Shown here: piece by piece, positions 7,721-44,014 of the stretch
How positions within the stretch are numbered: position 1 is the first letter of the stretch
How the letters are laid out: each line of letters begins with the position of its first letter
Assembly (NCBI GenBank): GCA_977862235.1
Contig: OZ374559.1
Coordinates: forward strand, 2,294,001 to 2,358,000
Length of the DNA: 64,000 nucleotides
Direction: 5' to 3'
Source of the DNA: Dudresnaya verticillata
Taxonomy: Eukaryota
Translations under genes and position numbers: made by a program
Notes under the pieces: model-generated
Told to the model about the DNA's origin: nothing
Database searches by the model: none
What the model saw: the letters and a program-made list of their open reading frames with translations, nothing else

Positions 7721-7753
7721 TTCGTACTATTGACGTGGATCGACCTACGTGTT

Positions 7754-8167
7754 CTAACAATAGTAGTAATACCAATAGCAGTAGCGGTAGCAATAGCACC
7801 GGTACGGAGAACAGATACACCTGTAGCGGCAGATAACACGCCTGCAAAGCCCACGAGATGTGGCCTGAAGCGACTGCTTCTCGTTCACGGTAAGGCTACG
7901 AACAAGCTCCTCGTTCTTGCCGGCGCTTTCCTGAAGCATTCTGGTGGAGGTCTTCGTCTTGGAAATGAAACAGCAGGTCTTACCCATAGATCCATCGGTC
8001 GACAACTCTGAGTTGAATACATGGCAGTGGGAGTATTCGTCCTTGGCACATTCTTTGGCGGCCTTACCCTCGTCGTCGCCTTCATGGATTTTGCATGGGC
8101 AGTCGGGAGTGGCTGTGGCGACAGCGAAGAGGGCGAGCAAGAGGGCGAGCAAGAAGAACTTGTTCAT
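7754..8167 (-). CDS. Secreted Cys-rich precursor, copy 1 (signal peptide, CPC/GKTCC domain, spacer, cationic Cys/Tyr/Arg C-terminal peptide)
   Basis: ATG start, classic signal peptide MNKFFLLALLLALFAVATA, 14 Cys in two clusters, upstream TATA-like box and a paralog at 47500. Confidence 0.9.
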   Translation of the reverse strand: MNKFFLLALLLALFAVATATPDCPCKIHEGDDEGKAAKECAKDEYSHCHVFNSELSTDGSMGKTCCFISKTKTSTRMLQESAGKNEELVRSLTVNEKQSLQATSRGLCRRVICRYRCICSPYRCYCYRYCYWYYYYC

Positions 8168-8290
8168 GCTGAGAGGAGGTAGCGAACAACGGTTGGTAGT
8201 TGGTGGTGTAGGTGATGAGTGAACACTGAGCGTGCGAAGCTTGGTGCGTTTGAAAAGTGTTGAAACGCGTTCTACTGAGGTTGATGGGTC

Positions 8291-8300
8291 GTATATATAC
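8291..8300 (-). promoter_or_regulatory. TATA-like box upstream of the peptide-precursor gene (repeated every 3983 bp)
   Basis: gtatatatac lies about 125 bp upstream of the ATG at 8167 on the minus strand, followed by a C/A-rich leader. Confidence 0.5.
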
Positions 8301-10320
8301 AGGTTTTGGTTTGGGGACTACTCAGCATAGGGACATTGGGATAGGGATAGAATATTGATAGCGGTTGCGATGCTGTTTCCTTGTGACAGGCACGGCTGGT
8401 ATGCTATGAAGCGTTTTTAAGGCTTACAATGCGTATAATGCGTTCCCACGCGTGGCTCGACGGCTTGAGGGGACTCGGCGCTGGGCACTGGGGCTGCCTC
8501 ATTACCAGCTCTGTAAACTAAACACAACAGCGCATGTGAGGTGTTGTTGAAGATGTGATGATAGACCACGTCCCCCTCCAGAGTCAGTTGTTGTGAATAT
8601 CATACCCCGCACGCAACATACACTCACTCCTTGAATCGCCACAATGAACGCAATCGACCAAGTTGGACAGAAATGAAGCTTGGCTGCAGGACTGACCGCA
8701 AATGCCAACACAACAGTGACGAAGATCGTGAGTGCGGGTCAGGCAGTTCGGCACACCAGCAATGACCTTGGCACTTGTTGTCGCGCTTTCCCATAAGTCA
8801 CAGCTCTCTGAATTTGTTTTCATTGGATAGGCCTCTGCACCTGTTGCTTTCGGTAGGTACATTGCCGAGGCCGGAGGTTGGTTGGTCGTCGTCTACTACC
8901 ACACGAGTTTGCCAGTAGACGCCCGGTAAAATACCCATTACCTGAAGCCACCGCGGTACATCAATTGGACAACGGGAGTTGTCTCTCCCATGAACCGGGT
9001 GGGGAACGATCATCGCCAACGTGAAGAAGACGAAGAGAGCGTATTAGCCGAGGCAGCGAGGATGGGAAAAGTTGAGATATACATGTATAGATATGTCTAC
9101 ATCGTCAAGTGAGTGAAGCTTTTAGACTGCCGTGGTTGGGTCCTGACAAGGTGGGGTTCCCCACTTTGTGCGCACTCCTCGCCGCTGCCCTCGGGGCACG
9201 ACCACATGCCTTCCTATTGACAATGACGCGTGATGCAGGCGCAGCATTACGGGCGATGTAGAGCGCCGATTTTGACTGTTGACCTGAAAGTGCATGAGCT
9301 GCTCCTCAGTCATTCCAACAGTTCGTTTGTCTCAACAACCTGGTTATTGAGGTTGCACTCGGATAGGTGCATGAGTCTGTTGAACAAAATCACCTGCAAC
9401 TGCAACTCTACAATTCTCTCGCCGAACGATGCCACAATTATTGCTTAACACACTGTGGTCAACTATCGAAATGAATCCTATCCCTCGATGAGTCACAGAC
9501 CTTGATACCCATTCGAGCACGACGCAAGTATCAGTTTGTGTGTGTGTATGTGTGTGTTTGATGTTCTCCTTCGTCTCTAGCAACCAACCCAATTCGCATA
9601 AAGGAAGCATCCTGACCATGATTCGATTAGGCAGCTCCGTTTCTTCGGTGTCAGTTTGTGTTCCCTTGAGGGCAGTCAAGTAAGCACCGGTAGCAGTGAA
9701 CATACTCAGAAAAAATGTTCACAGTTCCGTCTCAAGTCAGATCGAATGTCTACAGCTCAGCGTTCTATTCATTCTATAAGCGAAGAGAGACCAGTACAGA
9801 GAAGGGGAGCGTTATCAACATATCAACATATTGTTGCATTTGAATAGGTCTAAAGGGCCCTATGGCAGAACATCATTCAAGCTGTTCCGGAAGCTGTATT
9901 TATGTAGTATTGTTGTGAGTATAGGAAAATATCCTGATAACAAGCTTGCAGCTTTCTACATGAGCAGTCTGTATGAGTCTGTCGTTTTGTTGCATATATA
10001 CTCATTTTTACGACCGCTATGACCACGCCCTTAGATTAATGGAGGGTAGCTCGTAACCCTCGCCTGATGTTCTCCATACTGCTTCAACTTTAATTGACAG
10101 GGCAAACTCGATACCTATTATTGTTATTCGCACGCCTAAACCTGAAGTGTCATTTCTTTGTCTCCCTCTTTCCATTCGAGGCCTGCGCGAACGGAAGGAG
10201 CTCGATTAAGGAAATCCTACTGTGCTGTTATACTGCAAAATCTTATGAGCGAAGGGGCTACAAGGCACAACGATCAGCAAGGTAGTCGATCAGATGATGG
10301 AACCTCCGCATTTGTCGCTG

Positions 10321-10370
10321 TTATCATAAACGGAGAGCTCACTCACTTATCATAAACGGAGAGCTCACTC
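10321..10370. repeat. 26-bp-period tandem duplication within segment B (present in all nine B copies)
   Basis: ttatcataaacggagagctcactc occurs twice, separated by ac. Confidence 0.85.
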
Positions 10371-11736
10371 GAATTGATTTAGAGTTGCATTTGCCTCGCT
10401 GTGATTCATGGCAGTTCTCATCCATTCAGCCCCCTTGAAGGACTGCAGGTTATTCTTTGAGCAAAGTGTTGTACTACATAACTCATTCATTAATAATAAC
10501 TGCTTGTGAGAATACAAATCTTGCACTTGTGGTTCCGGCCACGATGGCAAGCAGGAAGGTCTACGGTACAACAGGCGCAATAAAATAGAGGTTGTCATTC
10601 CCATTCCTCCTCTGCACAGTTTTTGATCCTCTTGTTTAGAGGTTCGAAAGTGCATAAACTGCGAGTAGAATACTAGGGACTGATAGGATTCCTTGGAAGT
10701 GAAACAATTTTCCCGTCTCAAATTCGCCTGTCCGCAGGGCTTTGAACAAAGAGGCTCAAAAGTCTCTTTACGCATGACGGCCGTGCCTAAACCGCCATTC
10801 AAGCCGCATTCAAACCCCGTTCGCCTCCAACCAATGTGTTAACATAAACAGGTCGTACGGTCGTACCAGCTCCACAGCCAACTCCCTTTTCCTCCGACAA
10901 TTTTATTTCTCTTTCCAGACTACTCTCAAAGTCCTGGTCGAGTCCTGAGAAGGTAAAGCAAGTCATAGGGAAGTGGTAATTAGTGGTAAATGTGTTGGAA
11001 TAAAATAAACGCAAGCAAGCGTCACCTTTATTTCAATCTATGGATCGATCCTAGGAAGGGAACGAATTGTTTAATCGGCACTAAACACTACAAGTGGCAG
11101 CAAGAAAACAAGCCGGAACTTCAGTTCCGGTATTGTTAGATAGGGCGGTAGGTACTACACGTACCCTAGAAATACCGTTGAGAACCTGAAGTTTCCTTAC
11201 TTGTTTCCACCCCCACAACATACCGATATATTATACCACAGTGAAACACTGGATTTACGTCATAGGATTGCCATTTGTTTCAACGGCACGTACTATTGCC
11301 TATGCACCCCACCTGTCATTCAGCCTGGATACAACGCCCTACGGAACCGCTTTCCTCAAGTTTACAACAACTCCTATCGTAAATATGCGGGGTAATCAGT
11401 GCAAAGTGCAGTGCAAAGTGCAGTGCGAACCCCCTAACGCAGTGCCCACCAAACAATCCAAGCCACTCTTTTTTTGCAGCCTACATTCTAAGAACGACAT
11501 TGCTTTTAAATCCCGCACTCCTACGACACAAGAAAGAAGAAACTGTTGAGACAGAGGCACGTCTATGTGTAACAATGATCAACTGAACTGAGCAGGTGAT
11601 AGGTTATCGTCTCTTTATCTTTGCTAGTTCAAAACCAGGCACTATCAAGACTTGTACTTGTCGAGACATATTGCCTTCTGTACCATTGGTAGCACTGGTT
11701 CTATTCGTACTATTGACGTGGATCGACCTACGTGTT

Positions 11737-12150
11737 CTAACAATAGTAGTAATACCAATAGCAGTAGCGGTAGCAATAGCACCGGTACGGAGAACAGATA
11801 CACCTGTAGCGGCAGATAACACGCCTGCAAAGCCCACGAGATGTGGCCTGAAGCGACTGCTTCTCGTTCACGGTAAGGCTACGAACAAGCTCCTCGTTCT
11901 TGCCGGCGCTTTCCTGAAGCATTCTGGTGGAGGTCTTCGTCTTGGAAATGAAACAGCAGGTCTTACCCATAGATCCATCGATCGACAACTCTGAGTTGAA
12001 TACATGGCAGTGGGAGTATTCGTCCTTGGCACATTCTTTGGCGGCCTTACCCTCGTCGTCGCCTTCATGGATTTTGCATGGGCAGTCGGGAGTGGCTGTG
12101 GCGACAGCGAAGAGGGCGAGCAAGAGGGCGAGCAAGAAGAACTTGTTCAT
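11737..12150 (-). CDS. Secreted Cys-rich precursor, copy 2 (T57I variant)
   Basis: Same ORF as copy 1 except G>A at 11981. Confidence 0.9.
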   Translation of the reverse strand: MNKFFLLALLLALFAVATATPDCPCKIHEGDDEGKAAKECAKDEYSHCHVFNSELSIDGSMGKTCCFISKTKTSTRMLQESAGKNEELVRSLTVNEKQSLQATSRGLCRRVICRYRCICSPYRCYCYRYCYWYYYYC

Positions 12151-15100
12151 GCTGAGAGGAGGTAGCGAACAACGGTTGGTAGTTGGTGGTGTAGGTGATG
12201 AGTGAACACTGAGCGTGCGAAGCTTGGTGCGTTTGAAAAGTGTTGAAACGCGTTCTACTGAGGTTGATGGGTCGTATATATACAGGTTTTGGTTTGGGGA
12301 CTACTCAGCATAGGGACATTGGGATAGGGATAGAATATTGATAGCGGTTGCGTTGCTGTTTCCTTGTGACAGGCACGGCTGGTATGCTATGAAGCGTTTT
12401 TAAGGCTTACAATGCGTATAATGCGTTCCCACGCGTGGCTCGACGGCTTGAGGGGACTCGGCGCTGGGCACTGGGGCTGCCTCATTACCAGCTCTGTAAA
12501 CTAAACACAACAGCGCATGTGAGGTGTTGTTGAAGATGTGATGATAGACCACGTCCCCCTCCAGAGTCAGTTGTTGTGAATATCATACCCCGCACGCAAC
12601 ATACACTCACTCCTTGAATCGCCACAATGAACGCAATCGACCAAGTTGGACAGAAATGAAGCTTGGCTGCAGGACTGACCGCAAATGCCAACACAACAGT
12701 GACGAAGATCGTGAGTGCGGGTCAGGCAGTTCGGCACACCAGCAATGACCTTGGCACTTGTTGTCGCGCTTTCCCATAAGTCACAGCTCTCTGAATTTGT
12801 TTTCATTGGATAGGCCTCTGCACCTGTTGCTTTCGGTAGGTACATTGCCGAGGCCGGAGGTTGGTTGGTCGTCGTCTACTACCACACGAGTTTGCCAGTA
12901 GACGTCCGGTAAAATACCCATTACCTGAAGCCACCGCGGTACATCAATTGGACAACGGGAGTTGTCTCTCCCATGAACCGGGTGGGGAACGATCATCGCC
13001 AACGTGAAGAAGACGAAGAGAGCGTATTAGCCGAGGCAGCGAGGATGGGAAAAGTTGAGATATACATGTATAGATATGTCTACATCGTCAAGTGAGTGAA
13101 GCTTTTAGACTGCCGTGGTTGGGTCCTGACAAGGTGGGGTTCCCCACTTTGTGCGCACTCCTCGCCGCTGCCCTCGGGGCACGACCACATGCCTTCCTAT
13201 TGACAATGACGCGTGATGCAGGCGCAGCATTACGGGCGATGTAGAGCGCCGATTTTGACTGTTGACCTGAAAGTGCATGAGCTGCTCCTCAGTCATTCCA
13301 ACAGTTCGTTTGTCTCAACAACCTGGTTATTGAGGTTGCACTCGGATAGGTGCATGAGTCTGTTGAACAAAATCACCTGCAACTGCAACTCTACAATTCT
13401 CTCGCCGAACGATGCCACAATTATTGCTTAACACACTGTGGTCAACTATCGAAATGAATCCTATCCCTCGATGAGTCACAGACCTTGATACCCATTCGAG
13501 CACGACGCAAGTATCAGTTTGTGTGTGTGTATGTGTGTGTTTGATGTTCTCCTTCGTCTCTAGCAACCAACCCAATTCGCATAAAGGAAGCATCCTGACC
13601 ATGATTCGATTAGGCAGCTCCGTTTCTTCGGTGTCAGTTTGTGTTCCCTTGAGGGCAGTCAAGTAAGCACCGGTAGCAGTGAACATACTCAGAAAAAATG
13701 TTCACAGTTCCGTCTCAAGTCAGATCGAATGTCTACAGCTCAGCGTTCTATTCATTCTATAAGCGAAGAGAGACCAGTACAGAGAAGGGGAGCGTTATCA
13801 ACATATCAACATATTGTTGCATTTGAATAGGTCTAAAGGGCCCTATGGCAGAACATCATTCAAGCTGTTCCGGAAGCTGTATTTATGTAGTATTGTTGTG
13901 AGTATAGGAAAATATCCTGATAACAAGCTTGCAGCTTTCTACATGAGCAGTCTGTATGAGTCTGTCGTTTTGTTGCATATATACTCATTTTTACGACCGC
14001 TATGACCACGCCCTTAGATTAATGGAGGGTAGCTCGTAACCCTCGCCTGATGTTCTCCATACTGCTTCAACTTTAATTGACAGGGCAAACTCGATACCTA
14101 TTATTGTTATTCGCACGCCTAAACCTGAAGTGTCATTTCTTTGTCTCCCTCTTTCCATTCGAGGCCTGCGCGAACGGAAGGAGCTCGATTAAGGAAATCC
14201 TACTGTGCTGTTATACTGCAAAATCTTATGAGCGAAGGGGCTACAAGGCACAACGATCAGCAAGGTAGTCGATCAGATGATGGAACCTCCGCATTTGTCG
14301 CTGTTATCATAAACGGAGAGCTCACTCACTTATCATAAACGGAGAGCTCACTCGAATTGATTTAGAGTTGCATTTGCCTCGCTGTGATTCATGGCAGTTC
14401 TCATCCATTCAGCCCCCTTGAAGGACTGCAGGTTATTCTTTGAGCAAAGTGTTGTACTACATAACTCATTCATTAATAATAACTGCTTGTGAGAATACAA
14501 ATCTTGCACTTGTGGTTCCGGCCACGATGGCAAGCAGGAAGGTCTACGGTACAACAGGCGCAATAAAATAGAGGTTGTCATTCCCATTCCTCCTCTGCAC
14601 AGTTTTTGATCCTCTTGTTTAGAGGTTCGAAAGTGCATAAACTGCGAGTAGAATACTAGGGACTGATAGGATTCCTTGGAAGTGAAACAATTTTCCCGTC
14701 TCAAATTCGCCTGTCCGCAGGGCTTTGAACAAAGAGGCTCAAAAGTCTCTTTACGCATGACGGCCGTGCCTAAACCGCCATTCAAGCCGCATTCAAACCC
14801 CGTTCGCCTCCAACCAATGTGTTAACATAAACAGGTCGTACGGTCGTACCAGCTCCACAGCCAACTCCCTTTTCCTCCGACAATTTTATTTCTCTTTCCA
14901 GACTACTCTCAAAGTCCTGGTCGAGTCCTGAGAAGGTAAAGCAAGTCATAGGGAAGTGGTAATTAGTGGTAAATGTGTTGGAATAAAATAAACGCAAGCA
15001 AGCGTCACCTTTATTTCAATCTATGGATCGATCCTAGGAAGGGAACGAATTGTTTAATCGGCACTAAACACTACAAGTGGCAGCAAGAAAACAAGCCGGA

Positions 15101-15719
15101 ACTTCAGTTCCGGTATTGTTAGATAGGGCGGTAGGTACTACACGTACCCTAGAAATACCGTTGAGAACCTGAAGTTTCCTTACTTGTTTCCACCCCCACA
15201 ACATACCGATATATTATACCACAGTGAAACACTGGATTTACGTCATAGGATTGCCATTTGTTTCAACGGCACGTACTATTGCCTATGCACCCCACCTGTC
15301 ATTCAGCCTGGATACAACGCCCTACGGAACCGCTTTCCTCAAGTTTACAACAACTCCTATCGTAAATATGCGGGGTAATCAGTGCAAAGTGCAGTGCAAA
15401 GTGCAGTGCGAACCCCCTAACGCAGTGCCCACCAAACAATCCAAGCCACTCTTTTTTTGCAGCCTACATTCTAAGAACGACATTGCTTTTAAATCCCGCA
15501 CTCCTACGACACAAGAAAGAAGAAACTGTTGAGACAGAGGCACGTCTATGTGTAACAATGATCAACTGAACTGAGCAGGTGATAGGTTATCGTCTCTTTA
15601 TCTTTGCTAGTTCAAAACCAGGCACTATCAAGACTTGTACTTGTCGAGACATATTGCCTTCTGTACCATTGGTAGCACTGGTTCTATTCGTACTATTGAC
15701 GTGGATCGACCTACGTGTT

Positions 15720-16133
15720 CTAACAATAGTAGTAATACCAATAGCAGTAGCGGTAGCAATAGCACCGGTACGGAGAACAGATACACCTGTAGCGGCAGAT
15801 AACACGCCTGCAAAGCCCACGAGATGTGGCCTGAAGCGACTGCTTCTCGTTCACGGTAAGGCTACGAACAAGCTCCTCGTTCTTGCCGGCGCTTTCCTGA
15901 AGCATTCTGGTGGAGGTCTTCGTCTTGGAAATGAAACAGCAGGTCTTACCCATAGATCCATCGATCGACAACTCTGAGTTGAATACATGGCAGTGGGAGT
16001 ATTCGTCCTTGGCACATTCTTTGGCGGCCTTACCCTCGTCGTCGCCTTCATGGATTTTGCATGGGCAGTCGGGAGTGGCTGTGGCGACAGCGAAGAGGGC
16101 GAGCAAGAGGGCGAGCAAGAAGAACTTGTTCAT
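15720..16133 (-). CDS. Secreted Cys-rich precursor, copy 3 (T57I variant)
   Basis: Same ORF as copy 1 except G>A at 15964. Confidence 0.9.
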   Translation of the reverse strand: MNKFFLLALLLALFAVATATPDCPCKIHEGDDEGKAAKECAKDEYSHCHVFNSELSIDGSMGKTCCFISKTKTSTRMLQESAGKNEELVRSLTVNEKQSLQATSRGLCRRVICRYRCICSPYRCYCYRYCYWYYYYC

Positions 16134-19100
16134 GCTGAGAGGAGGTAGCGAACAACGGTTGGTAGTTGGTGGTGTAGGTGATGAGTGAACACTGAGCGTG
16201 CGAAGCTTGGTGCGTTTGAAAAGTGTTGAAACGCGTTCTACTGAGGTTGATGGGTCGTATATATACAGGTTTTGGTTTGGGGACTACTCAGCATAGGGAC
16301 ATTGGGATAGGGATAGAATATTGATAGCGGTTGCGTTGCTGTTTCCTTGTGACAGGCACGGCTGGTATGCTATGAAGCGTTTTTAAGGCTTACAATGCGT
16401 ATAATGCGTTCCCACGCGTGGCTCGACGGCTTGAGGGGACTCGGCGCTGGGCACTGGGGCTGCCTCATTACCAGCTCTGTAAACTAAACACAACAGCGCA
16501 TGTGAGGTGTTGTTGAAGATGTGATGATAGACCACGTCCCCCTCCAGAGTCAGTTGTTGTGAATATCATACCCCGCACGCAACATACACTCACTCCTTGA
16601 ATCGCCACAATGAACGCAATCGACCAAGTTGGACAGAAATGAAGCTTGGCTGCAGGACTGACCGCAAATGCCAACACAACAGTGACGAAGATCGTGAGTG
16701 CGGGTCAGGCAGTTCGGCACACCAGCAATGACCTTGGCACTTGTTGTCGCGCTTTCCCATAAGTCACAGCTCTCTGAATTTGTTTTCATTGGATAGGCCT
16801 CTGCACCTGTTGCTTTCGGTAGGTACATTGCCGAGGCCGGAGGTTGGTTGGTCGTCGTCTACTACCACACGAGTTTGCCAGTAGACGTCCGGTAAAATAC
16901 CCATTACCTGAAGCCACCGCGGTACATCAATTGGACAACGGGAGTTGTCTCTCCCATGAACCGGGTGGGGAACGATCATCGCCAACGTGAAGAAGACGAA
17001 GAGAGCGTATTAGCCGAGGCAGCGAGGATGGGAAAAGTTGAGATATACATGTATAGATATGTCTACATCGTCAAGTGAGTGAAGCTTTTAGACTGCCGTG
17101 GTTGGGTCCTGACAAGGTGGGGTTCCCCACTTTGTGCGCACTCCTCGCCGCTGCCCTCGGGGCACGACCACATGCCTTCCTATTGACAATGACGCGTGAT
17201 GCAGGCGCAGCATTACGGGCGATGTAGAGCGCCGATTTTGACTGTTGACCTGAAAGTGCATGAGCTGCTCCTCAGTCATTCCAACAGTTCGTTTGTCTCA
17301 ACAACCTGGTTATTGAGGTTGCACTCGGATAGGTGCATGAGTCTGTTGAACAAAATCACCTGCAACTGCAACTCTACAATTCTCTCGCCGAACGATGCCA
17401 CAATTATTGCTTAACACACTGTGGTCAACTATCGAAATGAATCCTATCCCTCGATGAGTCACAGACCTTGATACCCATTCGAGCACGACGCAAGTATCAG
17501 TTTGTGTGTGTGTATGTGTGTGTTTGATGTTCTCCTTCGTCTCTAGCAACCAACCCAATTCGCATAAAGGAAGCATCCTGACCATGATTCGATTAGGCAG
17601 CTCCGTTTCTTCGGTGTCAGTTTGTGTTCCCTTGAGGGCAGTCAAGTAAGCACCGGTAGCAGTGAACATACTCAGAAAAAATGTTCACAGTTCCGTCTCA
17701 AGTCAGATCGAATGTCTACAGCTCAGCGTTCTATTCATTCTATAAGCGAAGAGAGACCAGTACAGAGAAGGGGAGCGTTATCAACATATCAACATATTGT
17801 TGCATTTGAATAGGTCTAAAGGGCCCTATGGCAGAACATCATTCAAGCTGTTCCGGAAGCTGTATTTATGTAGTATTGTTGTGAGTATAGGAAAATATCC
17901 TGATAACAAGCTTGCAGCTTTCTACATGAGCAGTCTGTATGAGTCTGTCGTTTTGTTGCATATATACTCATTTTTACGACCGCTATGACCACGCCCTTAG
18001 ATTAATGGAGGGTAGCTCGTAACCCTCGCCTGATGTTCTCCATACTGCTTCAACTTTAATTGACAGGGCAAACTCGATACCTATTATTGTTATTCGCACG
18101 CCTAAACCTGAAGTGTCATTTCTTTGTCTCCCTCTTTCCATTCGAGGCCTGCGCGAACGGAAGGAGCTCGATTAAGGAAATCCTACTGTGCTGTTATACT
18201 GCAAAATCTTATGAGCGAAGGGGCTACAAGGCACAACGATCAGCAAGGTAGTCGATCAGATGATGGAACCTCCGCATTTGTCGCTGTTATCATAAACGGA
18301 GAGCTCACTCACTTATCATAAACGGAGAGCTCACTCGAATTGATTTAGAGTTGCATTTGCCTCGCTGTGATTCATGGCAGTTCTCATCCATTCAGCCCCC
18401 TTGAAGGACTGCAGGTTATTCTTTGAGCAAAGTGTTGTACTACATAACTCATTCATTAATAATAACTGCTTGTGAGAATACAAATCTTGCACTTGTGGTT
18501 CCGGCCACGATGGCAAGCAGGAAGGTCTACGGTACAACAGGCGCAATAAAATAGAGGTTGTCATTCCCATTCCTCCTCTGCACAGTTTTTGATCCTCTTG
18601 TTTAGAGGTTCGAAAGTGCATAAACTGCGAGTAGAATACTAGGGACTGATAGGATTCCTTGGAAGTGAAACAATTTTCCCGTCTCAAATTCGCCTGTCCG
18701 CAGGGCTTTGAACAAAGAGGCTCAAAAGTCTCTTTACGCATGACGGCCGTGCCTAAACCGCCATTCAAGCCGCATTCAAACCCCGTTCGCCTCCAACCAA
18801 TGTGTTAACATAAACAGGTCGTACGGTCGTACCAGCTCCACAGCCAACTCCCTTTTCCTCCGACAATTTTATTTCTCTTTCCAGACTACTCTCAAAGTCC
18901 TGGTCGAGTCCTGAGAAGGTAAAGCAAGTCATAGGGAAGTGGTAATTAGTGGTAAATGTGTTGGAATAAAATAAACGCAAGCAAGCGTCACCTTTATTTC
19001 AATCTATGGATCGATCCTAGGAAGGGAACGAATTGTTTAATCGGCACTAAACACTACAAGTGGCAGCAAGAAAACAAGCCGGAACTTCAGTTCCGGTATT

Positions 19101-19702
19101 GTTAGATAGGGCGGTAGGTACTACACGTACCCTAGAAATACCGTTGAGAACCTGAAGTTTCCTTACTTGTTTCCACCCCCACAACATACCGATATATTAT
19201 ACCACAGTGAAACACTGGATTTACGTCATAGGATTGCCATTTGTTTCAACGGCACGTACTATTGCCTATGCACCCCACCTGTCATTCAGCCTGGATACAA
19301 CGCCCTACGGAACCGCTTTCCTCAAGTTTACAACAACTCCTATCGTAAATATGCGGGGTAATCAGTGCAAAGTGCAGTGCAAAGTGCAGTGCGAACCCCC
19401 TAACGCAGTGCCCACCAAACAATCCAAGCCACTCTTTTTTTGCAGCCTACATTCTAAGAACGACATTGCTTTTAAATCCCGCACTCCTACGACACAAGAA
19501 AGAAGAAACTGTTGAGACAGAGGCACGTCTATGTGTAACAATGATCAACTGAACTGAGCAGGTGATAGGTTATCGTCTCTTTATCTTTGCTAGTTCAAAA
19601 CCAGGCACTATCAAGACTTGTACTTGTCGAGACATATTGCCTTCTGTACCATTGGTAGCACTGGTTCTATTCGTACTATTGACGTGGATCGACCTACGTG
19701 TT

Positions 19703-20116
19703 CTAACAATAGTAGTAATACCAATAGCAGTAGCGGTAGCAATAGCACCGGTACGGAGAACAGATACACCTGTAGCGGCAGATAACACGCCTGCAAAGCC
19801 CACGAGATGTGGCCTGAAGCGACTGCTTCTCGTTCACGGTAAGGCTACGAACAAGCTCCTCGTTCTTGCCGGCGCTTTCCTGAAGCATTCTGGTGGAGGT
19901 CTTCGTCTTGGAAATGAAACAGCAGGTCTTACCCATAGATCCATCGGTCGACAACTCTGAGTTGAATACATGGCAGTGGGAGTATTCGTCCTTGGCACAT
20001 TCTTTGGCGGCCTTACCCTCGTCGTCGCCTTCATGGATTTTGCATGGGCAGTCGGGAGTGGCTGTGGCGACAGCGAAGAGGGCGAGCAAGAGGGCGAGCA
20101 AGAAGAACTTGTTCAT
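19703..20116 (-). CDS. Secreted Cys-rich precursor, copy 4
   Basis: Protein identical to copy 1. Confidence 0.9.
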   Translation of the reverse strand: MNKFFLLALLLALFAVATATPDCPCKIHEGDDEGKAAKECAKDEYSHCHVFNSELSTDGSMGKTCCFISKTKTSTRMLQESAGKNEELVRSLTVNEKQSLQATSRGLCRRVICRYRCICSPYRCYCYRYCYWYYYYC

Positions 20117-31000: not shown

Positions 31001-31651
31001 CACTACAAGTGGCAGCAAGAAAACAAGCCGGAACTTCAGTTCCGGTATTGTTAGATAGGGCGGTAGGTACTACACGTACCCTAGAAATACCGTTGAGAAC
31101 CTGAAGTTTCCTTACTTGTTTCCACCCCCACAACATACCGATATATTATACCACAGTGAAACACTGGATTTACGTCATAGGATTGCCATTTGTTTCAACG
31201 GCACGTACTATTGCCTATGCACCCCACCTGTCATTCAGCCTGGATACAACGCCCTACGGAACCGCTTTCCTCAAGTTTACAACAACTCCTATCGTAAATA
31301 TGCGGGGTAATCAGTGCAAAGTGCAGTGCAAAGTGCAGTGCGAACCCCCTAACGCAGTGCCCACCAAACAATCCAAGCCACTCTTTTTTTGCAGCCTACA
31401 TTCTAAGAACGACATTGCTTTTAAATCCCGCACTCCTACGACACAAGAAAGAAGAAACTGTTGAGACAGAGGCACGTCTATGTGTAACAATGATCAACTG
31501 AACTGAGCAGGTGATAGGTTATCGTCTCTTTATCTTTGCTAGTTCAAAACCAGGCACTATCAAGACTTGTACTTGTCGAGACATATTGCCTTCTGTACCA
31601 TTGGTAGCACTGGTTCTATTCGTACTATTGACGTGGATCGACCTACGTGTT

Positions 31652-32065
31652 CTAACAATAGTAGTAATACCAATAGCAGTAGCGGTAGCAATAGCACCGG
31701 TACGGAGAACAGATACACCTGTAGCGGCAGATAACACGCCTGCAAAGCCCACGAGATGTGGCCTGAAGCGACTGCTTCTCGTTCACGGTAAGGCTACGAA
31801 CAAGCTCCTCGTTCTTGCCGGCGCTTTCCTGAAGCATTCTGGTGGAGGTCTTCGTCTTGGAAATGAAACAGCAGGTCTTACCCATAGATCCATCGGTCGA
31901 CAACTCTGAGTTGAATACATGGCAGTGGGAGTATTCGTCCTTGGCACATTCTTTGGCGGCCTTACCCTCGTCGTCGCCTTCATGGATTTTGCATGGGCAG
32001 TCGGGAGTGGCTGTGGCGACAGCGAAGAGGGCGAGCAAGAGGGCGAGCAAGAAGAACTTGTTCAT
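31652..32065 (-). CDS. Secreted Cys-rich precursor, copy 7
   Basis: Protein identical to copy 1. Confidence 0.9.
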   Translation of the reverse strand: MNKFFLLALLLALFAVATATPDCPCKIHEGDDEGKAAKECAKDEYSHCHVFNSELSTDGSMGKTCCFISKTKTSTRMLQESAGKNEELVRSLTVNEKQSLQATSRGLCRRVICRYRCICSPYRCYCYRYCYWYYYYC

Positions 32066-35000: not shown

Positions 35001-35634
35001 AGAAAACAAGCCGGAACTTCAGTTCCGGTATTGTTAGATAGGGCGGTAGGTACTACACGTACCCTAGAAATACCGTTGAGAACCTGAAGTTTCCTTACTT
35101 GTTTCCACCCCCACAACATACCGATATATTATACCACAGTGAAACACTGGATTTACGTCATAGGATTGCCATTTGTTTCAACGGCACGTACTATTGCCTA
35201 TGCACCCCACCTGTCATTCAGCCTGGATACAACGCCCTACGGAACCGCTTTCCTCAAGTTTACAACAACTCCTATCGTAAATATGCGGGGTAATCAGTGC
35301 AAAGTGCAGTGCAAAGTGCAGTGCGAACCCCCTAACGCAGTGCCCACCAAACAATCCAAGCCACTCTTTTTTTGCAGCCTACATTCTAAGAACGACATTG
35401 CTTTTAAATCCCGCACTCCTACGACACAAGAAAGAAGAAACTGTTGAGACAGAGGCACGTCTATGTGTAACAATGATCAACTGAACTGAGCAGGTGATAG
35501 GTTATCGTCTCTTTATCTTTGCTAGTTCAAAACCAGGCACTATCAAGACTTGTACTTGTCGAGACATATTGCCTTCTGTACCATTGGTAGCACTGGTTCT
35601 ATTCGTACTATTGACGTGGATCGACCTACGTGTT

Positions 35635-36048
35635 CTAACAATAGTAGTAATACCAATAGCAGTAGCGGTAGCAATAGCACCGGTACGGAGAACAGATACA
35701 CCTGTAGCGGCAGATAACACGCCTGCAAAGCCCACGAGATGTGGCCTGAAGCGACTGCTTCTCGTTCACGGTAAGGCTACGAACAAGCTCCTCGTTCTTG
35801 CCGGCGCTTTCCTGAAGCATTCTGGTGGAGGTCTTCGTCTTGGAAATGAAACAGCAGGTCTTACCCATAGATCCATCGGTCGACAACTCTGAGTTGAATA
35901 CATGGCAGTGGGAGTATTCGTCCTTGGCACATTCTTTGGCGGCCTTACCCTCGTCGTCGCCTTCATGGATTTTGCATGGGCAGTCGGGAGTGGCTGTGGC
36001 GACAGCGAAGAGGGCGAGCAAGAGGGCGAGCAAGAAGAACTTGTTCAT
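35635..36048 (-). CDS. Secreted Cys-rich precursor, copy 8
   Basis: Protein identical to copy 1. Confidence 0.9.
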   Translation of the reverse strand: MNKFFLLALLLALFAVATATPDCPCKIHEGDDEGKAAKECAKDEYSHCHVFNSELSTDGSMGKTCCFISKTKTSTRMLQESAGKNEELVRSLTVNEKQSLQATSRGLCRRVICRYRCICSPYRCYCYRYCYWYYYYC

Positions 36049-39000
36049 GCTGAGAGGAGGTAGCGAACAACGGTTGGTAGTTGGTGGTGTAGGTGATGAG
36101 TGAACACTGAGCGTGCGAAGCTTGGTGCGTTTGAAAAGTGTTGAAACGCGTTCTACTGAGGTTGATGGGTCGTATATATACAGGTTTTGGTTTGGGGACT
36201 ACTCAGCATAGGGACATTGGGATAGGGATAGAATATTGATAGCGGTTGCGTTGCTGTTTCCTTGTGACAGGCACGGCTGGTATGCTATGAAGCGTTTTTA
36301 AGGCTTACAATGCGTATAATGCGTTCCCACGCGTGGCTCGACGGCTTGAGGGGACTCGGCGCTGGGCACTGGGGCTGCCTCATTACCAGCTCTGTAAACT
36401 AAACACAACAGCGCATGTGAGGTGTTGTTGAAGATGTGATGATAGACCACGTCCCCCTCCAGAGTCAGTTGTTGTGAATATCATACCCCGCACGCAACAT
36501 ACACTCACTCCTTGAATCGCCACAATGAACGCAATCGACCAAGTTGGACAGAAATGAAGCTTGGCTGCAGGACTGACCGCAAATGCCAACACAACAGTGA
36601 CGAAGATCGTGAGTGCGGGTCAGGCAGTTCGGCACACCAGCAATGACCTTGGCACTTGTTGTCGCGCTTTCCCATAAGTCACAGCTCTCTGAATTTGTTT
36701 TCATTGGATAGGCCTCTGCACCTGTTGCTTTCGGTAGGTACATTGCCGAGGCCGGAGGTTGGTTGGTCGTCGTCTACTACCACACGAGTTTGCCAGTAGA
36801 CGTCCGGTAAAATACCCATTACCTGAAGCCACCGCGGTACATCAATTGGACAACGGGAGTTGTCTCTCCCATGAACCGGGTGGGGAACGATCATCGCCAA
36901 CGTGAAGAAGACGAAGAGAGCGTATTAGCCGAGGCAGCGAGGATGGGAAAAGTTGAGATATACATGTATAGATATGTCTACATCGTCAAGTGAGTGAAGC
37001 TTTTAGACTGCCGTGGTTGGGTCCTGACAAGGTGGGGTTCCCCACTTTGTGCGCACTCCTCGCCGCTGCCCTCGGGGCACGACCACATGCCTTCCTATTG
37101 ACAATGACGCGTGATGCAGGCGCAGCATTACGGGCGATGTAGAGCGCCGATTTTGACTGTTGACCTGAAAGTGCATGAGCTGCTCCTCAGTCATTCCAAC
37201 AGTTCGTTTGTCTCAACAACCTGGTTATTGAGGTTGCACTCGGATAGGTGCATGAGTCTGTTGAACAAAATCACCTGCAACTGCAACTCTACAATTCTCT
37301 CGCCGAACGATGCCACAATTATTGCTTAACACACTGTGGTCAACTATCGAAATGAATCCTATCCCTCGATGAGTCACAGACCTTGATACCCATTCGAGCA
37401 CGACGCAAGTATCAGTTTGTGTGTGTGTATGTGTGTGTTTGATGTTCTCCTTCGTCTCTAGCAACCAACCCAATTCGCATAAAGGAAGCATCCTGACCAT
37501 GATTCGATTAGGCAGCTCCGTTTCTTCGGTGTCAGTTTGTGTTCCCTTGAGGGCAGTCAAGTAAGCACCGGTAGCAGTGAACATACTCAGAAAAAATGTT
37601 CACAGTTCCGTCTCAAGTCAGATCGAATGTCTACAGCTCAGCGTTCTATTCATTCTATAAGCGAAGAGAGACCAGTACAGAGAAGGGGAGCGTTATCAAC
37701 ATATCAACATATTGTTGCATTTGAATAGGTCTAAAGGGCCCTATGGCAGAACATCATTCAAGCTGTTCCGGAAGCTGTATTTATGTAGTATTGTTGTGAG
37801 TATAGGAAAATATCCTGATAACAAGCTTGCAGCTTTCTACATGAGCAGTCTGTATGAGTCTGTCGTTTTGTTGCATATATACTCATTTTTACGACCGCTA
37901 TGACCACGCCCTTAGATTAATGGAGGGTAGCTCGTAACCCTCGCCTGATGTTCTCCATACTGCTTCAACTTTAATTGACAGGGCAAACTCGATACCTATT
38001 ATTGTTATTCGCACGCCTAAACCTGAAGTGTCATTTCTTTGTCTCCCTCTTTCCATTCGAGGCCTGCGCGAACGGAAGGAGCTCGATTAAGGAAATCCTA
38101 CTGTGCTGTTATACTGCAAAATCTTATGAGCGAAGGGGCTACAAGGCACAACGATCAGCAAGGTAGTCGATCAGATGATGGAACCTCCGCATTTGTCGCT
38201 GTTATCATAAACGGAGAGCTCACTCACTTATCATAAACGGAGAGCTCACTCGAATTGATTTAGAGTTGCATTTGCCTCGCTGTGATTCATGGCAGTTCTC
38301 ATCCATTCAGCCCCCTTGAAGGACTGCAGGTTATTCTTTGAGCAAAGTGTTGTACTACATAACTCATTCATTAATAATAACTGCTTGTGAGAATACAAAT
38401 CTTGCACTTGTGGTTCCGGCCACGATGGCAAGCAGGAAGGTCTACGGTACAACAGGCGCAATAAAATAGAGGTTGTCATTCCCATTCCTCCTCTGCACAG
38501 TTTTTGATCCTCTTGTTTAGAGGTTCGAAAGTGCATAAACTGCGAGTAGAATACTAGGGACTGATAGGATTCCTTGGAAGTGAAACAATTTTCCCGTCTC
38601 AAATTCGCCTGTCCGCAGGGCTTTGAACAAAGAGGCTCAAAAGTCTCTTTACGCATGACGGCCGTGCCTAAACCGCCATTCAAGCCGCATTCAAACCCCG
38701 TTCGCCTCCAACCAATGTGTTAACATAAACAGGTCGTACGGTCGTACCAGCTCCACAGCCAACTCCCTTTTCCTCCGACAATTTTATTTCTCTTTCCAGA
38801 CTACTCTCAAAGTCCTGGTCGAGTCCTGAGAAGGTAAAGCAAGTCATAGGGAAGTGGTAATTAGTGGTAAATGTGTTGGAATAAAATAAACGCAAGCAAG
38901 CGTCACCTTTATTTCAATCTATGGATCGATCCTAGGAAGGGAACGAATTGTTTAATCGGCACTAAACACTACAAGTGGCAGCAAGAAAACAAGCCGGAAC

Positions 39001-39617
39001 TTCAGTTCCGGTATTGTTAGATAGGGCGGTAGGTACTACACGTACCCTAGAAATACCGTTGAGAACCTGAAGTTTCCTTACTTGTTTCCACCCCCACAAC
39101 ATACCGATATATTATACCACAGTGAAACACTGGATTTACGTCATAGGATTGCCATTTGTTTCAACGGCACGTACTATTGCCTATGCACCCCACCTGTCAT
39201 TCAGCCTGGATACAACGCCCTACGGAACCGCTTTCCTCAAGTTTACAACAACTCCTATCGTAAATATGCGGGGTAATCAGTGCAAAGTGCAGTGCAAAGT
39301 GCAGTGCGAACCCCCTAACGCAGTGCCCACCAAACAATCCAAGCCACTCTTTTTTTGCAGCCTACATTCTAAGAACGACATTGCTTTTAAATCCCGCACT
39401 CCTACGACACAAGAAAGAAGAAACTGTTGAGACAGAGGCACGTCTATGTGTAACAATGATCAACTGAACTGAGCAGGTGATAGGTTATCGTCTCTTTATC
39501 TTTGCTAGTTCAAAACCAGGCACTATCAAGACTTGTACTTGTCGAGACATATTGCCTTCTGTACCATTGGTAGCACTGGTTCTATTCGTACTATTGACGT
39601 GGATCGACCTACGTGTT

Positions 39618-40031
39618 CTAACAATAGTAGTAATACCAATAGCAGTAGCGGTAGCAATAGCACCGGTACGGAGAACAGATACACCTGTAGCGGCAGATAA
39701 CACGCCTGCAAAGCCCACGAGATGTGGCCTGAAGCGACTGCTTCTCGTTCACGGTAAGGCTACGAACAAGCTCCTCGTTCTTGCCGGCGCTTTCCTGAAG
39801 CATTCTGGTGGAGGTCTTCGTCTTGGAAATGAAACAGCAGGTCTTACCCATAGATCCATCGGTCGACAACTCTGAGTTGAATACATGGCAGTGGGAGTAT
39901 TCGTCCTTGGCACATTCTTTGGCGGCCTTACCCTCGTCGTCGCCTTCATGGATTTTGCATGGGCAGTCGGGAGTGGCTGTGGCGACAGCGAAGAGGGCGA
40001 GCAAGAGGGCGAGCAAGAAGAACTTGTTCAT
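39618..40031 (-). CDS. Secreted Cys-rich precursor, copy 9
   Basis: Protein identical to copy 1. Confidence 0.9.
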   Translation of the reverse strand: MNKFFLLALLLALFAVATATPDCPCKIHEGDDEGKAAKECAKDEYSHCHVFNSELSTDGSMGKTCCFISKTKTSTRMLQESAGKNEELVRSLTVNEKQSLQATSRGLCRRVICRYRCICSPYRCYCYRYCYWYYYYC

Positions 40032-43000
40032 GCTGAGAGGAGGTAGCGAACAACGGTTGGTAGTTGGTGGTGTAGGTGATGAGTGAACACTGAGCGTGCG
40101 AAGCTTGGTGCGTTTGAAAAGTGTTGAAACGCGTTCTACTGAGGTTGATGGGTCGTATATATACAGGTTTTGGTTTGGGGACTACTCAGCATAGGGACAT
40201 TGGGATAGGGATAGAATATTGATAGCGGTTGCGTTGCTGTTTCCTTGTGACAGGCACGGCTGGTATGCTATGAAGCGTTTTTAAGGCTTACAATGCGTAT
40301 AATGCGTTCCCACGCGTGGCTCGACGGCTTGAGGGGACTCGGCGCTGGGCACTGGGGCTGCCTCATTACCAGCTCTGTAAACTAAACACAACAGCGCATG
40401 TGAGGTGTTGTTGAAGATGTGATGATAGACCACGTCCCCCTCCAGAGTCAGTTGTTGTGAATATCATACCCCGCACGCAACATACACTCACTCCTTGAAT
40501 CGCCACAATGAACGCAATCGACCAAGTTGGACAGAAATGAAGCTTGGCTGCAGGACTGACCGCAAATGCCAACACAACAGTGACGAAGATCGTGAGTGCG
40601 GGTCAGGCAGTTCGGCACACCAGCAATGACCTTGGCACTTGTTGTCGCGCTTTCCCATAAGTCACAGCTCTCTGAATTTGTTTTCATTGGATAGGCCTCT
40701 GCACCTGTTGCTTTCGGTAGGTACATTGCCGAGGCCGGAGGTTGGTTGGTCGTCGTCTACTACCACACGAGTTTGCCAGTAGACGTCCGGTAAAATACCC
40801 ATTACCTGAAGCCACCGCGGTACATCAATTGGACAACGGGAGTTGTCTCTCCCATGAACCGGGTGGGGAACGATCATCGCCAACGTGAAGAAGACGAAGA
40901 GAGCGTATTAGCCGAGGCAGCGAGGATGGGAAAAGTTGAGATATACATGTATAGATATGTCTACATCGTCAAGTGAGTGAAGCTTTTAGACTGCCGTGGT
41001 TGGGTCCTGACAAGGTGGGGTTCCCCACTTTGTGCGCACTCCTCGCCGCTGCCCTCGGGGCACGACCACATGCCTTCCTATTGACAATGACGCGTGATGC
41101 AGGCGCAGCATTACGGGCGATGTAGAGCGCCGATTTTGACTGTTGACCTGAAAGTGCATGAGCTGCTCCTCAGTCATTCCAACAGTTCGTTTGTCTCAAC
41201 AACCTGGTTATTGAGGTTGCACTCGGATAGGTGCATGAGTCTGTTGAACAAAATCACCTGCAACTGCAACTCTACAATTCTCTCGCCGAACGATGCCACA
41301 ATTATTGCTTAACACACTGTGGTCAACTATCGAAATGAATCCTATCCCTCGATGAGTCACAGACCTTGATACCCATTCGAGCACGACGCAAGTATCAGTT
41401 TGTGTGTGTGTATGTGTGTGTTTGATGTTCTCCTTCGTCTCTAGCAACCAACCCAATTCGCATAAAGGAAGCATCCTGACCATGATTCGATTAGGCAGCT
41501 CCGTTTCTTCGGTGTCAGTTTGTGTTCCCTTGAGGGCAGTCAAGTAAGCACCGGTAGCAGTGAACATACTCAGAAAAAATGTTCACAGTTCCGTCTCAAG
41601 TCAGATCGAATGTCTACAGCTCAGCGTTCTATTCATTCTATAAGCGAAGAGAGACCAGTACAGAGAAGGGGAGCGTTATCAACATATCAACATATTGTTG
41701 CATTTGAATAGGTCTAAAGGGCCCTATGGCAGAACATCATTCAAGCTGTTCCGGAAGCTGTATTTATGTAGTATTGTTGTGAGTATAGGAAAATATCCTG
41801 ATAACAAGCTTGCAGCTTTCTACATGAGCAGTCTGTATGAGTCTGTCGTTTTGTTGCATATATACTCATTTTTACGACCGCTATGACCACGCCCTTAGAT
41901 TAATGGAGGGTAGCTCGTAACCCTCGCCTGATGTTCTCCATACTGCTTCAACTTTAATTGACAGGGCAAACTCGATACCTATTATTGTTATTCGCACGCC
42001 TAAACCTGAAGTGTCATTTCTTTGTCTCCCTCTTTCCATTCGAGGCCTGCGCGAACGGAAGGAGCTCGATTAAGGAAATCCTACTGTGCTGTTATACTGC
42101 AAAATCTTATGAGCGAAGGGGCTACAAGGCACAACGATCAGCAAGGTAGTCGATCAGATGATGGAACCTCCGCATTTGTCGCTGTTATCATAAACGGAGA
42201 GCTCACTCACTTATCATAAACGGAGAGCTCACTCGAATTGATTTAGAGTTGCATTTGCCTCGCTGTGATTCATGGCAGTTCTCATCCATTCAGCCCCCTT
42301 GAAGGACTGCAGGTTATTCTTTGAGCAAAGTGTTGTACTACATAACTCATTCATTAATAATAACTGCTTGTGAGAATACAAATCTTGCACTTGTGGTTCC
42401 GGCCACGATGGCAAGCAGGAAGGTCTACGGTACAACAGGCGCAATAAAATAGAGGTTGTCATTCCCATTCCTCCTCTGCACAGTTTTTGATCCTCTTGTT
42501 TAGAGGTTCGAAAGTGCATAAACTGCGAGTAGAATACTAGGGACTGATAGGATTCCTTGGAAGTGAAACAATTTTCCCGTCTCAAATTCGCCTGTCCGCA
42601 GGGCTTTGAACAAAGAGGCTCAAAAGTCTCTTTACGCATGACGGCCGTGCCTAAACCGCCATTCAAGCCGCATTCAAACCCCGTTCGCCTCCAACCAATG
42701 TGTTAACATAAACAGGTCGTACGGTCGTACCAGCTCCACAGCCAACTCCCTTTTCCTCCGACAATTTTATTTCTCTTTCCAGACTACTCTCAAAGTCCTG
42801 GTCGAGTCCTGAGAAGGTAAAGCAAGTCATAGGGAAGTGGTAATTAGTGGTAAATGTGTTGGAATAAAATAAACGCAAGCAAGCGTCACCTTTATTTCAA
42901 TCTATGGATCGATCCTAGGAAGGGAACGAATTGTTTAATCGGCACTAAACACTACAAGTGGCAGCAAGAAAACAAGCCGGAACTTCAGTTCCGGTATTGT

Positions 43001-43600
43001 TAGATAGGGCGGTAGGTACTACACGTACCCTAGAAATACCGTTGAGAACCTGAAGTTTCCTTACTTGTTTCCACCCCCACAACATACCGATATATTATAC
43101 CACAGTGAAACACTGGATTTACGTCATAGGATTGCCATTTGTTTCAACGGCACGTACTATTGCCTATGCACCCCACCTGTCATTCAGCCTGGATACAACG
43201 CCCTACGGAACCGCTTTCCTCAAGTTTACAACAACTCCTATCGTAAATATGCGGGGTAATCAGTGCAAAGTGCAGTGCAAAGTGCAGTGCGAACCCCCTA
43301 ACGCAGTGCCCACCAAACAATCCAAGCCACTCTTTTTTTGCAGCCTACATTCTAAGAACGACATTGCTTTTAAATCCCGCACTCCTACGACACAAGAAAG
43401 AAGAAACTGTTGAGACAGAGGCACGTCTATGTGTAACAATGATCAACTGAACTGAGCAGGTGATAGGTTATCGTCTCTTTATCTTTGCTAGTTCAAAACC
43501 AGGCACTATCAAGACTTGTACTTGTCGAGACATATTGCCTTCTGTACCATTGGTAGCACTGGTTCTATTCGTACTATTGACGTGGATCGACCTACGTGTT

Positions 43601-44014
43601 CTAACAATAGTAGTAATACCAATAGCAGTAGCGGTAGCAATAGCACCGGTACGGAGAACAGATACACCTGTAGCGGCAGATAACACGCCTGCAAAGCCCA
43701 CGAGATGTGGCCTGAAGCGACTGCTTCTCGTTCACGGTAAGGCTACGAACAAGCTCCTCGTTCTTGCCGGCGCTTTCCTGAAGCATTCTGGTGGAGGTCT
43801 TCGTCTTGGAAATGAAACAGCAGGTCTTACCCATAGATCCATCGGTCGACAACTCTGAGTTGAATACATGGCAGTGGGAGTATTCGTCCTTGGCACATTC
43901 TTTGGCGGCCTTACCCTCGTCGTCGCCTTCATGGATTTTGCATGGGCAGTCGGGAGTGGCTGTGGCGACAGCGAAGAGGGCGAGCAAGAGGGCGAGCAAG
44001 AAGAACTTGTTCAT
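43601..44014 (-). CDS. Secreted Cys-rich precursor, copy 10
   Basis: Protein identical to copy 1. Confidence 0.9.
   Translation of the reverse strand: MNKFFLLALLLALFAVATATPDCPCKIHEGDDEGKAAKECAKDEYSHCHVFNSELSTDGSMGKTCCFISKTKTSTRMLQESAGKNEELVRSLTVNEKQSLQATSRGLCRRVICRYRCICSPYRCYCYRYCYWYYYYC

Follow-up and report, generated by a model that had tools for sequence, protein, structure and literature searches.

A tandemly amplified precursor gene in the red alga Dudresnaya verticillata encodes a Tyr- and Arg-rich tail predicted to fold as a cystine-ladder hairpin

The window analysed here is a 64,000-nt stretch of Dudresnaya verticillata DNA (assembly GCA_977862235.1, contig OZ374559.1, positions 2,294,001 to 2,358,000 of the forward strand), and it contains a tandem array whose repeating unit encodes a small secreted-type precursor (P0001) with a Cys-rich N-domain, a variable spacer and a 32-residue tail rich in Arg, Tyr and Cys. 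The array comprises nine full units plus 1,728 bp, with no indels throughout, and six-frame translation finds the 32-mer ten times, on the minus strand every time and with a constant period of 3,983 bp. The ten precursor open reading frames (ORFs) lie at 7754-8167 + k x 3983 (k = 0-9, minus strand), and Table 1 gives the coordinates of the individual features. A first-pass annotation, made from the letters of the window, had reported ten copies of the precursor and placed the 32-mer at 7757-7852; both statements are confirmed, and the composition (10 Tyr, 6 Arg, 1 Trp, no Asp or Glu) and Cys positions (3, 8, 12, 14, 19, 21, 25 and 32) that it gave for the tail are exact. Judged by its sequences, the precursor family is real, conserved and previously undescribed.

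Table 1. Coordinates of the precursor locus within the 64,000-nt window
Feature	Position	Strand	Basis or remarks
Tandem array	7721..45295	.	unit 3,983 bp, 9.43 units, 99.9% identical
Precursor gene copy 1 (P0001), 137 residues, intronless	7754..8167	-	ORF and array analysis
32-residue Arg/Tyr/Cys tail, predicted cystine-ladder beta-hairpin	7757..7852	-	alignment and AlphaFold2
Cys-free variable spacer, residues 67-105, ends in conserved T/S-S-R site	7853..7969	-	alignment; low pLDDT at 70-103
Cys-rich N-domain, residues 20-66, ends GKTCC, net charge -5, predicted beta-alpha-beta-beta	7970..8110	-	alignment and model
Predicted signal peptide of copy 1, residues 1-19	8111..8167	-	hydropathy 3.2 over 11 residues; helix 3-18 in model
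TATA-like box, 132 nt upstream of ATG, present in each unit	8292..8299	-	sequence inspection
Precursor copy 2 (T57I)	11737..12150	-	array comparison
Precursor copy 3 (T57I)	15720..16133	-	array comparison
Precursor copy 4	19703..20116	-	array comparison
Precursor copy 5	23686..24099	-	array comparison
Precursor copy 6	27669..28082	-	array comparison
Precursor copy 7	31652..32065	-	array comparison
Precursor copy 8	35635..36048	-	array comparison
Precursor copy 9	39618..40031	-	array comparison
Precursor copy 10	43601..44014	-	array comparison
Right junction, immediately next to last partial unit: copy of unit positions 9862-10039 (85% identity)	45296..45481	+	sequence comparison
Paralogue P0003, 155 residues: signal-like N-terminus, N-domain with all 8 Cys, 82-residue acidic tail (net -17) replacing hairpin	47500..47967	+	profile of four precursors 26.7 bits, E 3.6e-07 within window

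A stretch rich in Cys and Tyr codons may arise simply because a hydrophobic gene lies on the opposite strand. We rejected this reading of the Cys/Tyr run because the plus frame lacks Met, carries A as third base in 21 of the 33 codons spanning the tail and shows a GC content at third codon positions (GC3) of 0.36, compared with 0.69 for the minus frame of the precursor; the precursor ORF is a real gene. Introns are rare in red-algal genes, the figure for Bostrychia being 15.59% (10.1101/2025.02.11.637652), and the intronless, GC3-rich genes that the window holds amid retroelements accord with a multicellular red alga as source. The hydrophobic N-terminus of the precursor ends in A-T-A, and the protein is likely secreted. 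Behind the signal lies a pro-region of 86 residues in total, including a Cys-rich module of 47 residues; the Cys-free stretch that follows had been given as 36 residues, and the correct count, from C66 to R105, is 39. The precursor is likely cut after R105, at the T/S-S-R site, and the 32-mer freed in this way would have a computed mass of ~4,270 Da with four disulfides.

A search with the single protein gave one relative among 55 candidates, and phmmer over 1.84 billion representatives returned four matches at E up to 0.001, three of which were retained; the fourth, P0006 (1,034 residues), was dropped as spurious, being repetitive and having no matched stretch. The profile search recovered only the same three homologues among 2,498 candidates, and pattern scans yielded no confirmed relative in JGI metagenomes (575 and 302 stretches), prokaryote genomes (607) or viral contigs (625). 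The homologues (P0002, P0004 and P0005) come from Logan contigs, are 44-52% identical to P0001 and share the entire precursor layout, down to a chain that ends at the last Cys. The tail is their most conserved region, with 28, 21 and 25 of its 32 residues (homologues in that order) identical to P0001; the corresponding counts are 8, 7 and 9 of 19 for the signal, 19, 27 and 18 of 48 for the N-domain and 4, 6 and 12 of 33 for the spacer. The spacer varies from 30 to 39 residues among the four precursors, and conservation rises at T/S-S-R, just before G/A-L/I-C-R-R, marking a likely monobasic cleavage site. This order of motifs is present in all four sequences and bears out the earlier proposal of a secreted-type precursor with a conserved basic site. 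If cleavage follows T/S-S-R, all four tails are 32 residues long, and 20 of the 32 columns do not vary, namely six of the Cys, eight of the Tyr and every one of the six Arg positions. Each tail carries 10-13 Tyr (31-41%) and 6-7 Arg, and the 128 residues of the four tails include 44 Tyr and 2 Trp and no Phe, Lys or acidic residue. The presence of 44 Tyr and not one Phe suggests that the phenol group itself matters rather than mere hydrophobicity.

The Cys spacing of the tail, Cx3CxC-x4-CxCx3C, had been described as mirror-symmetric over all four pairs. This holds for the three inner pairs, whose positions sum to 33, and fails for C3 and C32, which sum to 35 and lie two off register, so that the outer bond needs a two-residue bulge. 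We rejected the symmetry as sufficient proof of a ladder and regard it as modest evidence, since three symmetric pairs about any centre occurred in 16.9% of 200,000 tail shuffles. Three inner nested pairs with one common sum were found in 1.1% of 300,000 shuffles, or 0.16% if same-face spacing was also required, the shuffle criteria having been set after the sequence was seen. AlphaFold2, run with the four-sequence alignment, placed strands at residues 107-119 and 124-136 around an S-P-Y-R turn; the predicted local distance difference test score (pLDDT) was 73-77 over residues 111-137, the spacer was of low confidence, and the mean over the precursor model was 62.5. In P0004, Tyr replaces C8 as well as C25, which are predicted to pair as a rung, and this joint loss is as a ladder predicts and supports one rung. 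The model and the paired loss support the disulfide-laddered hairpin suggested by the first-pass annotation, with a bonding pattern that is predicted. Homologues departing from the Cys symmetry had been named as grounds against this fold; P0002, P0004 and P0005 were examined on this point and keep it. In the i+j=33 register, the invariant cross-strand pairs would be R11:Y22, R9:Y24, R5:Y28 and R4:Y29, with Arg and Tyr on both faces, predicted strand 1 holding Arg and aliphatic residues and strand 2 holding Tyr. Altogether, we consider the processed-hairpin anatomy of the precursor to be quite probable.

The N-domain was first described as a 6-Cys domain, which is true of P0001; the consensus domain has eight Cys (CPC...C...C...C...GKTCC), one pair of which is lost in P0001, and across the precursors it spans 45-49 residues with 6-8 Cys. 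P0005 lacks C23/C48 and P0001 lacks positions 27/53, paired losses that suggest two of the domain's four bonds, P0002 being an exception that lacks position 27 only and retains seven Cys. The pro-domain is acidic in three of the four sequences, the N-domain of P0005 having a net charge of +2. In the best of five models (mean pLDDT 74.5, the other four 48-66) the N-domain adopts a beta-alpha-beta-beta arrangement. The CS-alpha-beta defensin motif consists of a helix CxxxC bonded to a strand CxC on a beta-alpha-beta-beta fold; the topology predicted for the N-domain is of this kind, but with one Cys in the helix and a CC in the last strand. Neither the whole precursor model nor the N-domain had a Foldseek match at E up to 0.001, and the best VIA-align scores were weak (Z 2.7, root-mean-square deviation 7.1, 51 aligned; Z 3.1, root-mean-square deviation 2.4, 46 aligned; plant defensins Z 2.0-2.3), values that speak neither for nor against a known fold. 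A complex prediction of N-domain and tail, run without an alignment, scored 0.00, which is taken neither for nor against an association of the two.

The only match to the precursor profile above threshold within the window, apart from the array, is P0003, whose gene stands head-to-head with copy 10 at a distance of 3.5 kb. P0003 beat 2,000 of 2,000 shuffles against each of P0002, P0004 and P0005 and 1,999 of 2,000 against P0001, and a search of the protein collection with P0003 itself gave no relative among 843 candidates. As the profile scores P0003 at only 26.7 bits, relatives sharing the N-domain alone would have been missed. The N-domain is a separate module, and the position of an old paralogue adjoining the array suggests that this is the native locus of the gene.

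The view that the peptide belongs to no described family agrees with the outcome of the Pfam, PDB, fold and literature searches. For the four precursors Pfam was empty even at E up to 10, no family being found for the tail or the N-domain either, and a PDB sequence search with the tail at E up to 10 gave no match. PDB profile matches (the best to myosin IE, E 0.0095; two to scorpion peptides, E 0.75 and 3.9) were rejected as chance or Cys-driven. Four exact motifs of the family occurred in none of the papers of the full-text library searched. No description of the precursor family was found in the literature, including the available parts of PMC10222056, PMC8307928 and PMC12115072, a search whose scope stopped short of subscription papers and bioRxiv supplements, so that the protein table of the Chondrus cuticle preprint discussed below could contain a relative.

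Three of the 3,983 columns of the repeating unit vary (7998, 8370 and 8922). Column 7998 gives T57I in the adjacent copies 2 and 3, the other two are non-coding changes confined to copy 1, and copies 4-10 are identical across ~26 kb. These three distinct unit types, together with the unique junctions at both ends, argue for a real amplification; the count of ten, with copies 4-10 identical, is that of the assembled contig. Such a length of identity exceeds typical accurate long reads, and the ten copies could in part be an assembly effect, the true number being fewer (about three or four) or more, an alternative that concerns copy number only and fits every functional reading. We consider it unlikely, if worth bearing in mind, in view of the three unit types, the T57I change common to two adjacent copies, the absence of indels and the unique junctions; the variant pattern fits a genuine duplication in steps, but a second allele stitched into the contig might look the same. 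The array would be most simply explained by unequal crossing-over at the locus or some comparable tandem amplification. The 3,983-bp unit showed neither a terminal inverted repeat nor any other end of a transposon, five other ORFs of the unit gave no significant Pfam match, and Rfam gave no match within 6000-12000. The amplification is apparently recent, and the near-identical copies suggest a recent change in dosage.

At its left end the array abuts retroelement debris (6689-7720), which includes an RVT_2 fragment (6689-6946, minus strand, E 1.8e-09) and a plus-strand ORF piece at 7535-7720 that has no Pfam match and that we take to be Copia gag-like. The debris breaks off 33 nt downstream of the copy 1 stop, these 33 nt being the only part of the unit left beyond the stop, and the 3' flank of copy 1 therefore differs from that of copies 2-10. 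The right flank looks as though 413 bp of the unit (9449-9861) were missing, and the diverged copy that abuts the last partial unit hints at an older duplication beneath a recently homogenised array. In the far left flank, a 106-bp stretch at 479-584 matches the unit spacer at 10424-10521 with 68% identity and is probably a dispersed repeat.

Elsewhere, the window carries long terminal repeat (LTR) retrotransposons with reverse transcriptase (RT), integrase and chromodomain. A Gypsy-type LTR element with gag, RT, RNase H, integrase and chromodomain occupies 55036-60808 on the plus strand. A probable DIRS-type retrotransposon at 49236-52276 is made up of overlapping minus-strand ORFs, one matching RT weakly (E 8e-04) and another presumably tyrosine-recombinase-like. 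A 181-residue ORF at 1436-1981 (minus strand) weakly matches the E2F/DP winged helix (E 3.9e-04, short of the Pfam cut-off) and continues into a coiled stretch. A CuZn superoxide dismutase (SOD)-like gene lies 1.9 kb from the array (5267-5857, minus strand; Sod_Cu E 4.6e-29); it is signal-bearing and intronless, has a GC3 of 0.89 and His at ligand-like spacing, and its product is presumably of the secreted Cu/Zn type known from Chondrus and Gracilaria, which likewise accords with a red-algal source.

As to function, we lean, tentatively, towards the 32-mer being a peroxidase-cross-linkable building block of the algal wall, cuticle or adhesive, and place this slightly ahead of a role in defence; the two roles are not mutually exclusive. 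The precursor would be secreted and then cut after T/S-S-R, freeing a hairpin of ~4.3 kDa in which an Arg-rich strand is paired with a Tyr-rich strand. The acidic, disulfide-bonded N-domain and the spacer would keep this aggregation-prone hairpin soluble during secretion. Once free, its invariant Arg would bind sulfated galactans and its invariant Tyr strip would stack on sugars and neighbouring hairpins and be cross-linked or halogenated by surface peroxidases, with the recent local tandem amplification raising the dose. A matrix role is put ahead because the tail exceeds the length of known beta-hairpin defence peptides (32 versus 11-25 residues), has 10-13 Tyr where these have at most 3, shows no Tyr-to-Phe exchange and is the conserved part of its precursor, and because of what the Chondrus cuticle contains. 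Six heme peroxidases occur in this protein-rich cuticle, along with a CuZn superoxide dismutase (putative), a cationic carrageenan-binding protein, lineage-restricted secreted proteins and unidentified small bands (10.64898/2026.01.12.698930). The CuZn-SOD-like gene near the array also counts in favour of a matrix role. A precedent is RALF22, a small peptide, cationic and released by processing, which uses Arg to bind and compact an anionic polymer of the wall (10.1101/2023.08.23.554416).

Several points weigh against a matrix role. The location, binding and cross-linking of the hairpin are what we infer from sequence, and the SOD gene may stand next to the array by coincidence. With three homologues only, none from annotated model seaweeds, the peptide is not a general cuticle component. 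The AlphaFold model and the paired Cys loss are not independent, because the same alignment was used, and random chance would give the paired loss at C8/C25 4 times in 28. The main text of the cuticle preprint does not mention tyrosine, cross-linking or bromination (10.64898/2026.01.12.698930). Finally, the Cys spacing, a charge of +6/+7 that comes from Arg alone and a place at the C-terminus, after a disulfide-bonded pro-domain, fit defence peptides just as well. A hairpin that attaches to microbial envelopes on the surface of the thallus and breaks them, in the manner of protegrin, tachyplesin or arenicin, its dose raised by the amplification, is a possibility to be taken seriously, though we judge it slightly the less probable of the two. 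Such a role would accord with the CxC-x4-CxC core of protegrin-1 and theta-defensin-1, the Cx3C flanks of tachyplesin, a net charge due to Arg and the absence of Asp, Glu, His and Gln, in line with the preference of the class (PMC13001179), and a C-terminal place behind a folded pro-domain, as in cathelicidin and BRICHOS precursors (PMC7761999, PMC4410394). The mostly acidic pro-domain would suit it too, and some members of the class are conserved (hepcidin, PMC4410394) or non-amphipathic (capitellacin, PMC7761999). However, besides its length, the tail is 31-41% Tyr where the class has at most 17% (PMC13001179) and shows no exchange to Phe at any of the eight invariant Tyr positions; its conservation behind a variable pro-region is the reverse of frog antimicrobial peptide precursors (PMC7106915), and the available part of the class catalogue lists no algal member (PMC13001179). 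The positive charge of the P0005 N-domain also speaks against defence. The first-pass annotation had left a defence role and a Tyr-cross-linked one side by side; of these, the antimicrobial half is weakened by the length of the tail, its Phe-free Tyr content and the greater conservation of the mature part, while the wall or adhesive option now leads slightly.

Peptide signals, too, usually consist of a Cys-rich mature peptide that is conserved and sits at the C-terminus, after a pro-region that varies, and the 32-mer could be a developmental, wound or mating signal read by a receptor, like plant RALF or EPF; RALF22 is known as both signal and wall component (10.1101/2023.08.23.554416). We regard this as improbable, given that a tenfold amplification and an aggregation-prone Tyr run better suit a bulk product, that no RALF or EPF Pfam match was obtained and that the window holds no receptor gene. 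An uncut two-domain secreted protein, with the N-domain as functional module and the Arg/Tyr hairpin as a wall-anchoring tag swapped for an acidic tail in the paralogue, seems to us equally improbable. The N-domain is indeed joined to a different tail in P0003, and the site before the hairpin is monobasic rather than of the furin-type dibasic kind, but T/S-S-R is kept in four of four sequences at the exact start of the conserved block, whereas the rest of the spacer drifts in length (30-39 residues) and sequence.

Taken further, the matrix reading would give red seaweeds a gene-encoded cystine-ladder hairpin family of their own on a modular carrier with interchangeable cargo, the +6 Tyr hairpin and the -17 paralogue tail being opposite-charge halves of a surface glue or cuticle that is brominated or cured by peroxidase and possibly also antimicrobial. 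This extended proposal is speculative and distinctly unlikely; if true, it would mean a natural adhesive or antifouling scaffold, compact and open to synthesis, from a source other than animals and land plants. A structural role would give molecular access to the building and hardening of seaweed surfaces, and a defence role would bring a further eukaryotic lineage into the beta-hairpin peptide class. Some small proteins of the red-algal cuticle still await identification (10.64898/2026.01.12.698930), and the 32-residue molecule is defined enough to be synthesised and tried for both wall and defence roles.

Fewer than 30 families of disulfide-closed beta-hairpin peptides are catalogued, none of them algal in the part of the catalogue available, and the antimicrobial class is defined by a single antiparallel beta-hairpin, experimentally shown, with at least one cross-strand disulfide, Cys pairs at least 3 residues apart, 11-25 residues and a net charge of +1 to +8, with Arg over Lys and few Asp, Glu, His or Gln (PMC13001179); the Tyr maxima given above, at most 3 residues and 17%, were counted from its datafile. 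All four tails, with 6-7 Arg, no Lys and no acidic residue, fall within the charge range, and at 32 residues they lie outside the length range; their Cys spacing is compatible with the disulfide requirement, the paired C8/C25 loss in P0004 supporting one rung of a bonding scheme that is predicted. Like the protegrins, theta-defensins, tachyplesins/polyphemusins, gomesin and arenicins (PMC13001179, PMC4410394), the tail is a predicted single hairpin with nested disulfides and an Arg-only charge, forming the C-terminal part of a secreted-type precursor; the likeness of its CxC-x4-CxC core to protegrin-1 and theta-defensin-1, and of its Cx3C flanks to tachyplesin, was established by eye against the datafile. 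Unlike them, it has up to four rungs, with its Tyr mostly on one strand, no amidation Gly, no backbone cyclisation signal and an unrelated pro-domain; its antimicrobial activity is only a candidate one, and its host is an alga, where the available catalogue lists animals and flowering plants only (PMC13001179).

The individual families differ from the tail in what defines them. Theta-defensins are 18-residue head-to-tail cycles spliced from two nonapeptides of alpha-defensin-like precursors (PMC4410394), whereas here a single chain, preceded by an unrelated pro-domain, contains the symmetric hairpin in full. Unlike protegrins and other cathelicidins, the four precursors have no cathelin Pfam match and end in Cys, with no Gly donor for C-terminal amidation, and unlike arenicin and capitellacin they have no BRICHOS domain among their Pfam results, which are empty. 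As in cathelicidin and BRICHOS precursors, a folded pro-domain precedes an aggregation-prone C-terminal hairpin, which makes a chaperone role plausible by analogy (PMC7761999), but this pro-domain has 45-49 residues with 6-8 Cys and recurs with an acidic tail in the adjoining gene. Hepcidins share with the tail eight Cys, the same predicted nested order (1-8, 2-7, 3-6, 4-5) and a conserved mature peptide freed, in the case of the tail probably, after a basic residue (PMC4410394); they are 20-25-mers with vicinal Cys pairs, whereas the tail has no adjacent Cys, another spacing, a Tyr/Arg composition and no Pfam or PDB sequence match. The resemblance to RALF22, also a cationic, Cys-bonded secreted peptide, lies in the possible condensation of anionic wall polysaccharide via Arg (10.1101/2023.08.23.554416) and is an analogy only, as the two share no sequence similarity and differ in fold and Cys pattern. 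Although the tail lacks the defining features of theta-defensins, protegrins/cathelicidins, BRICHOS peptides and hepcidins, its predicted architecture is that of a host-defence peptide of the beta-hairpin kind.

Coccidian oocyst-wall precursors, mussel foot proteins and sandcastle-worm cement are likewise Tyr-rich secreted products that are oxidatively cross-linked, often with Arg/Lys partners; these proteins are mostly repetitive or disordered, unlike the compact cystine-ladder hairpin predicted for the Dudresnaya precursor.

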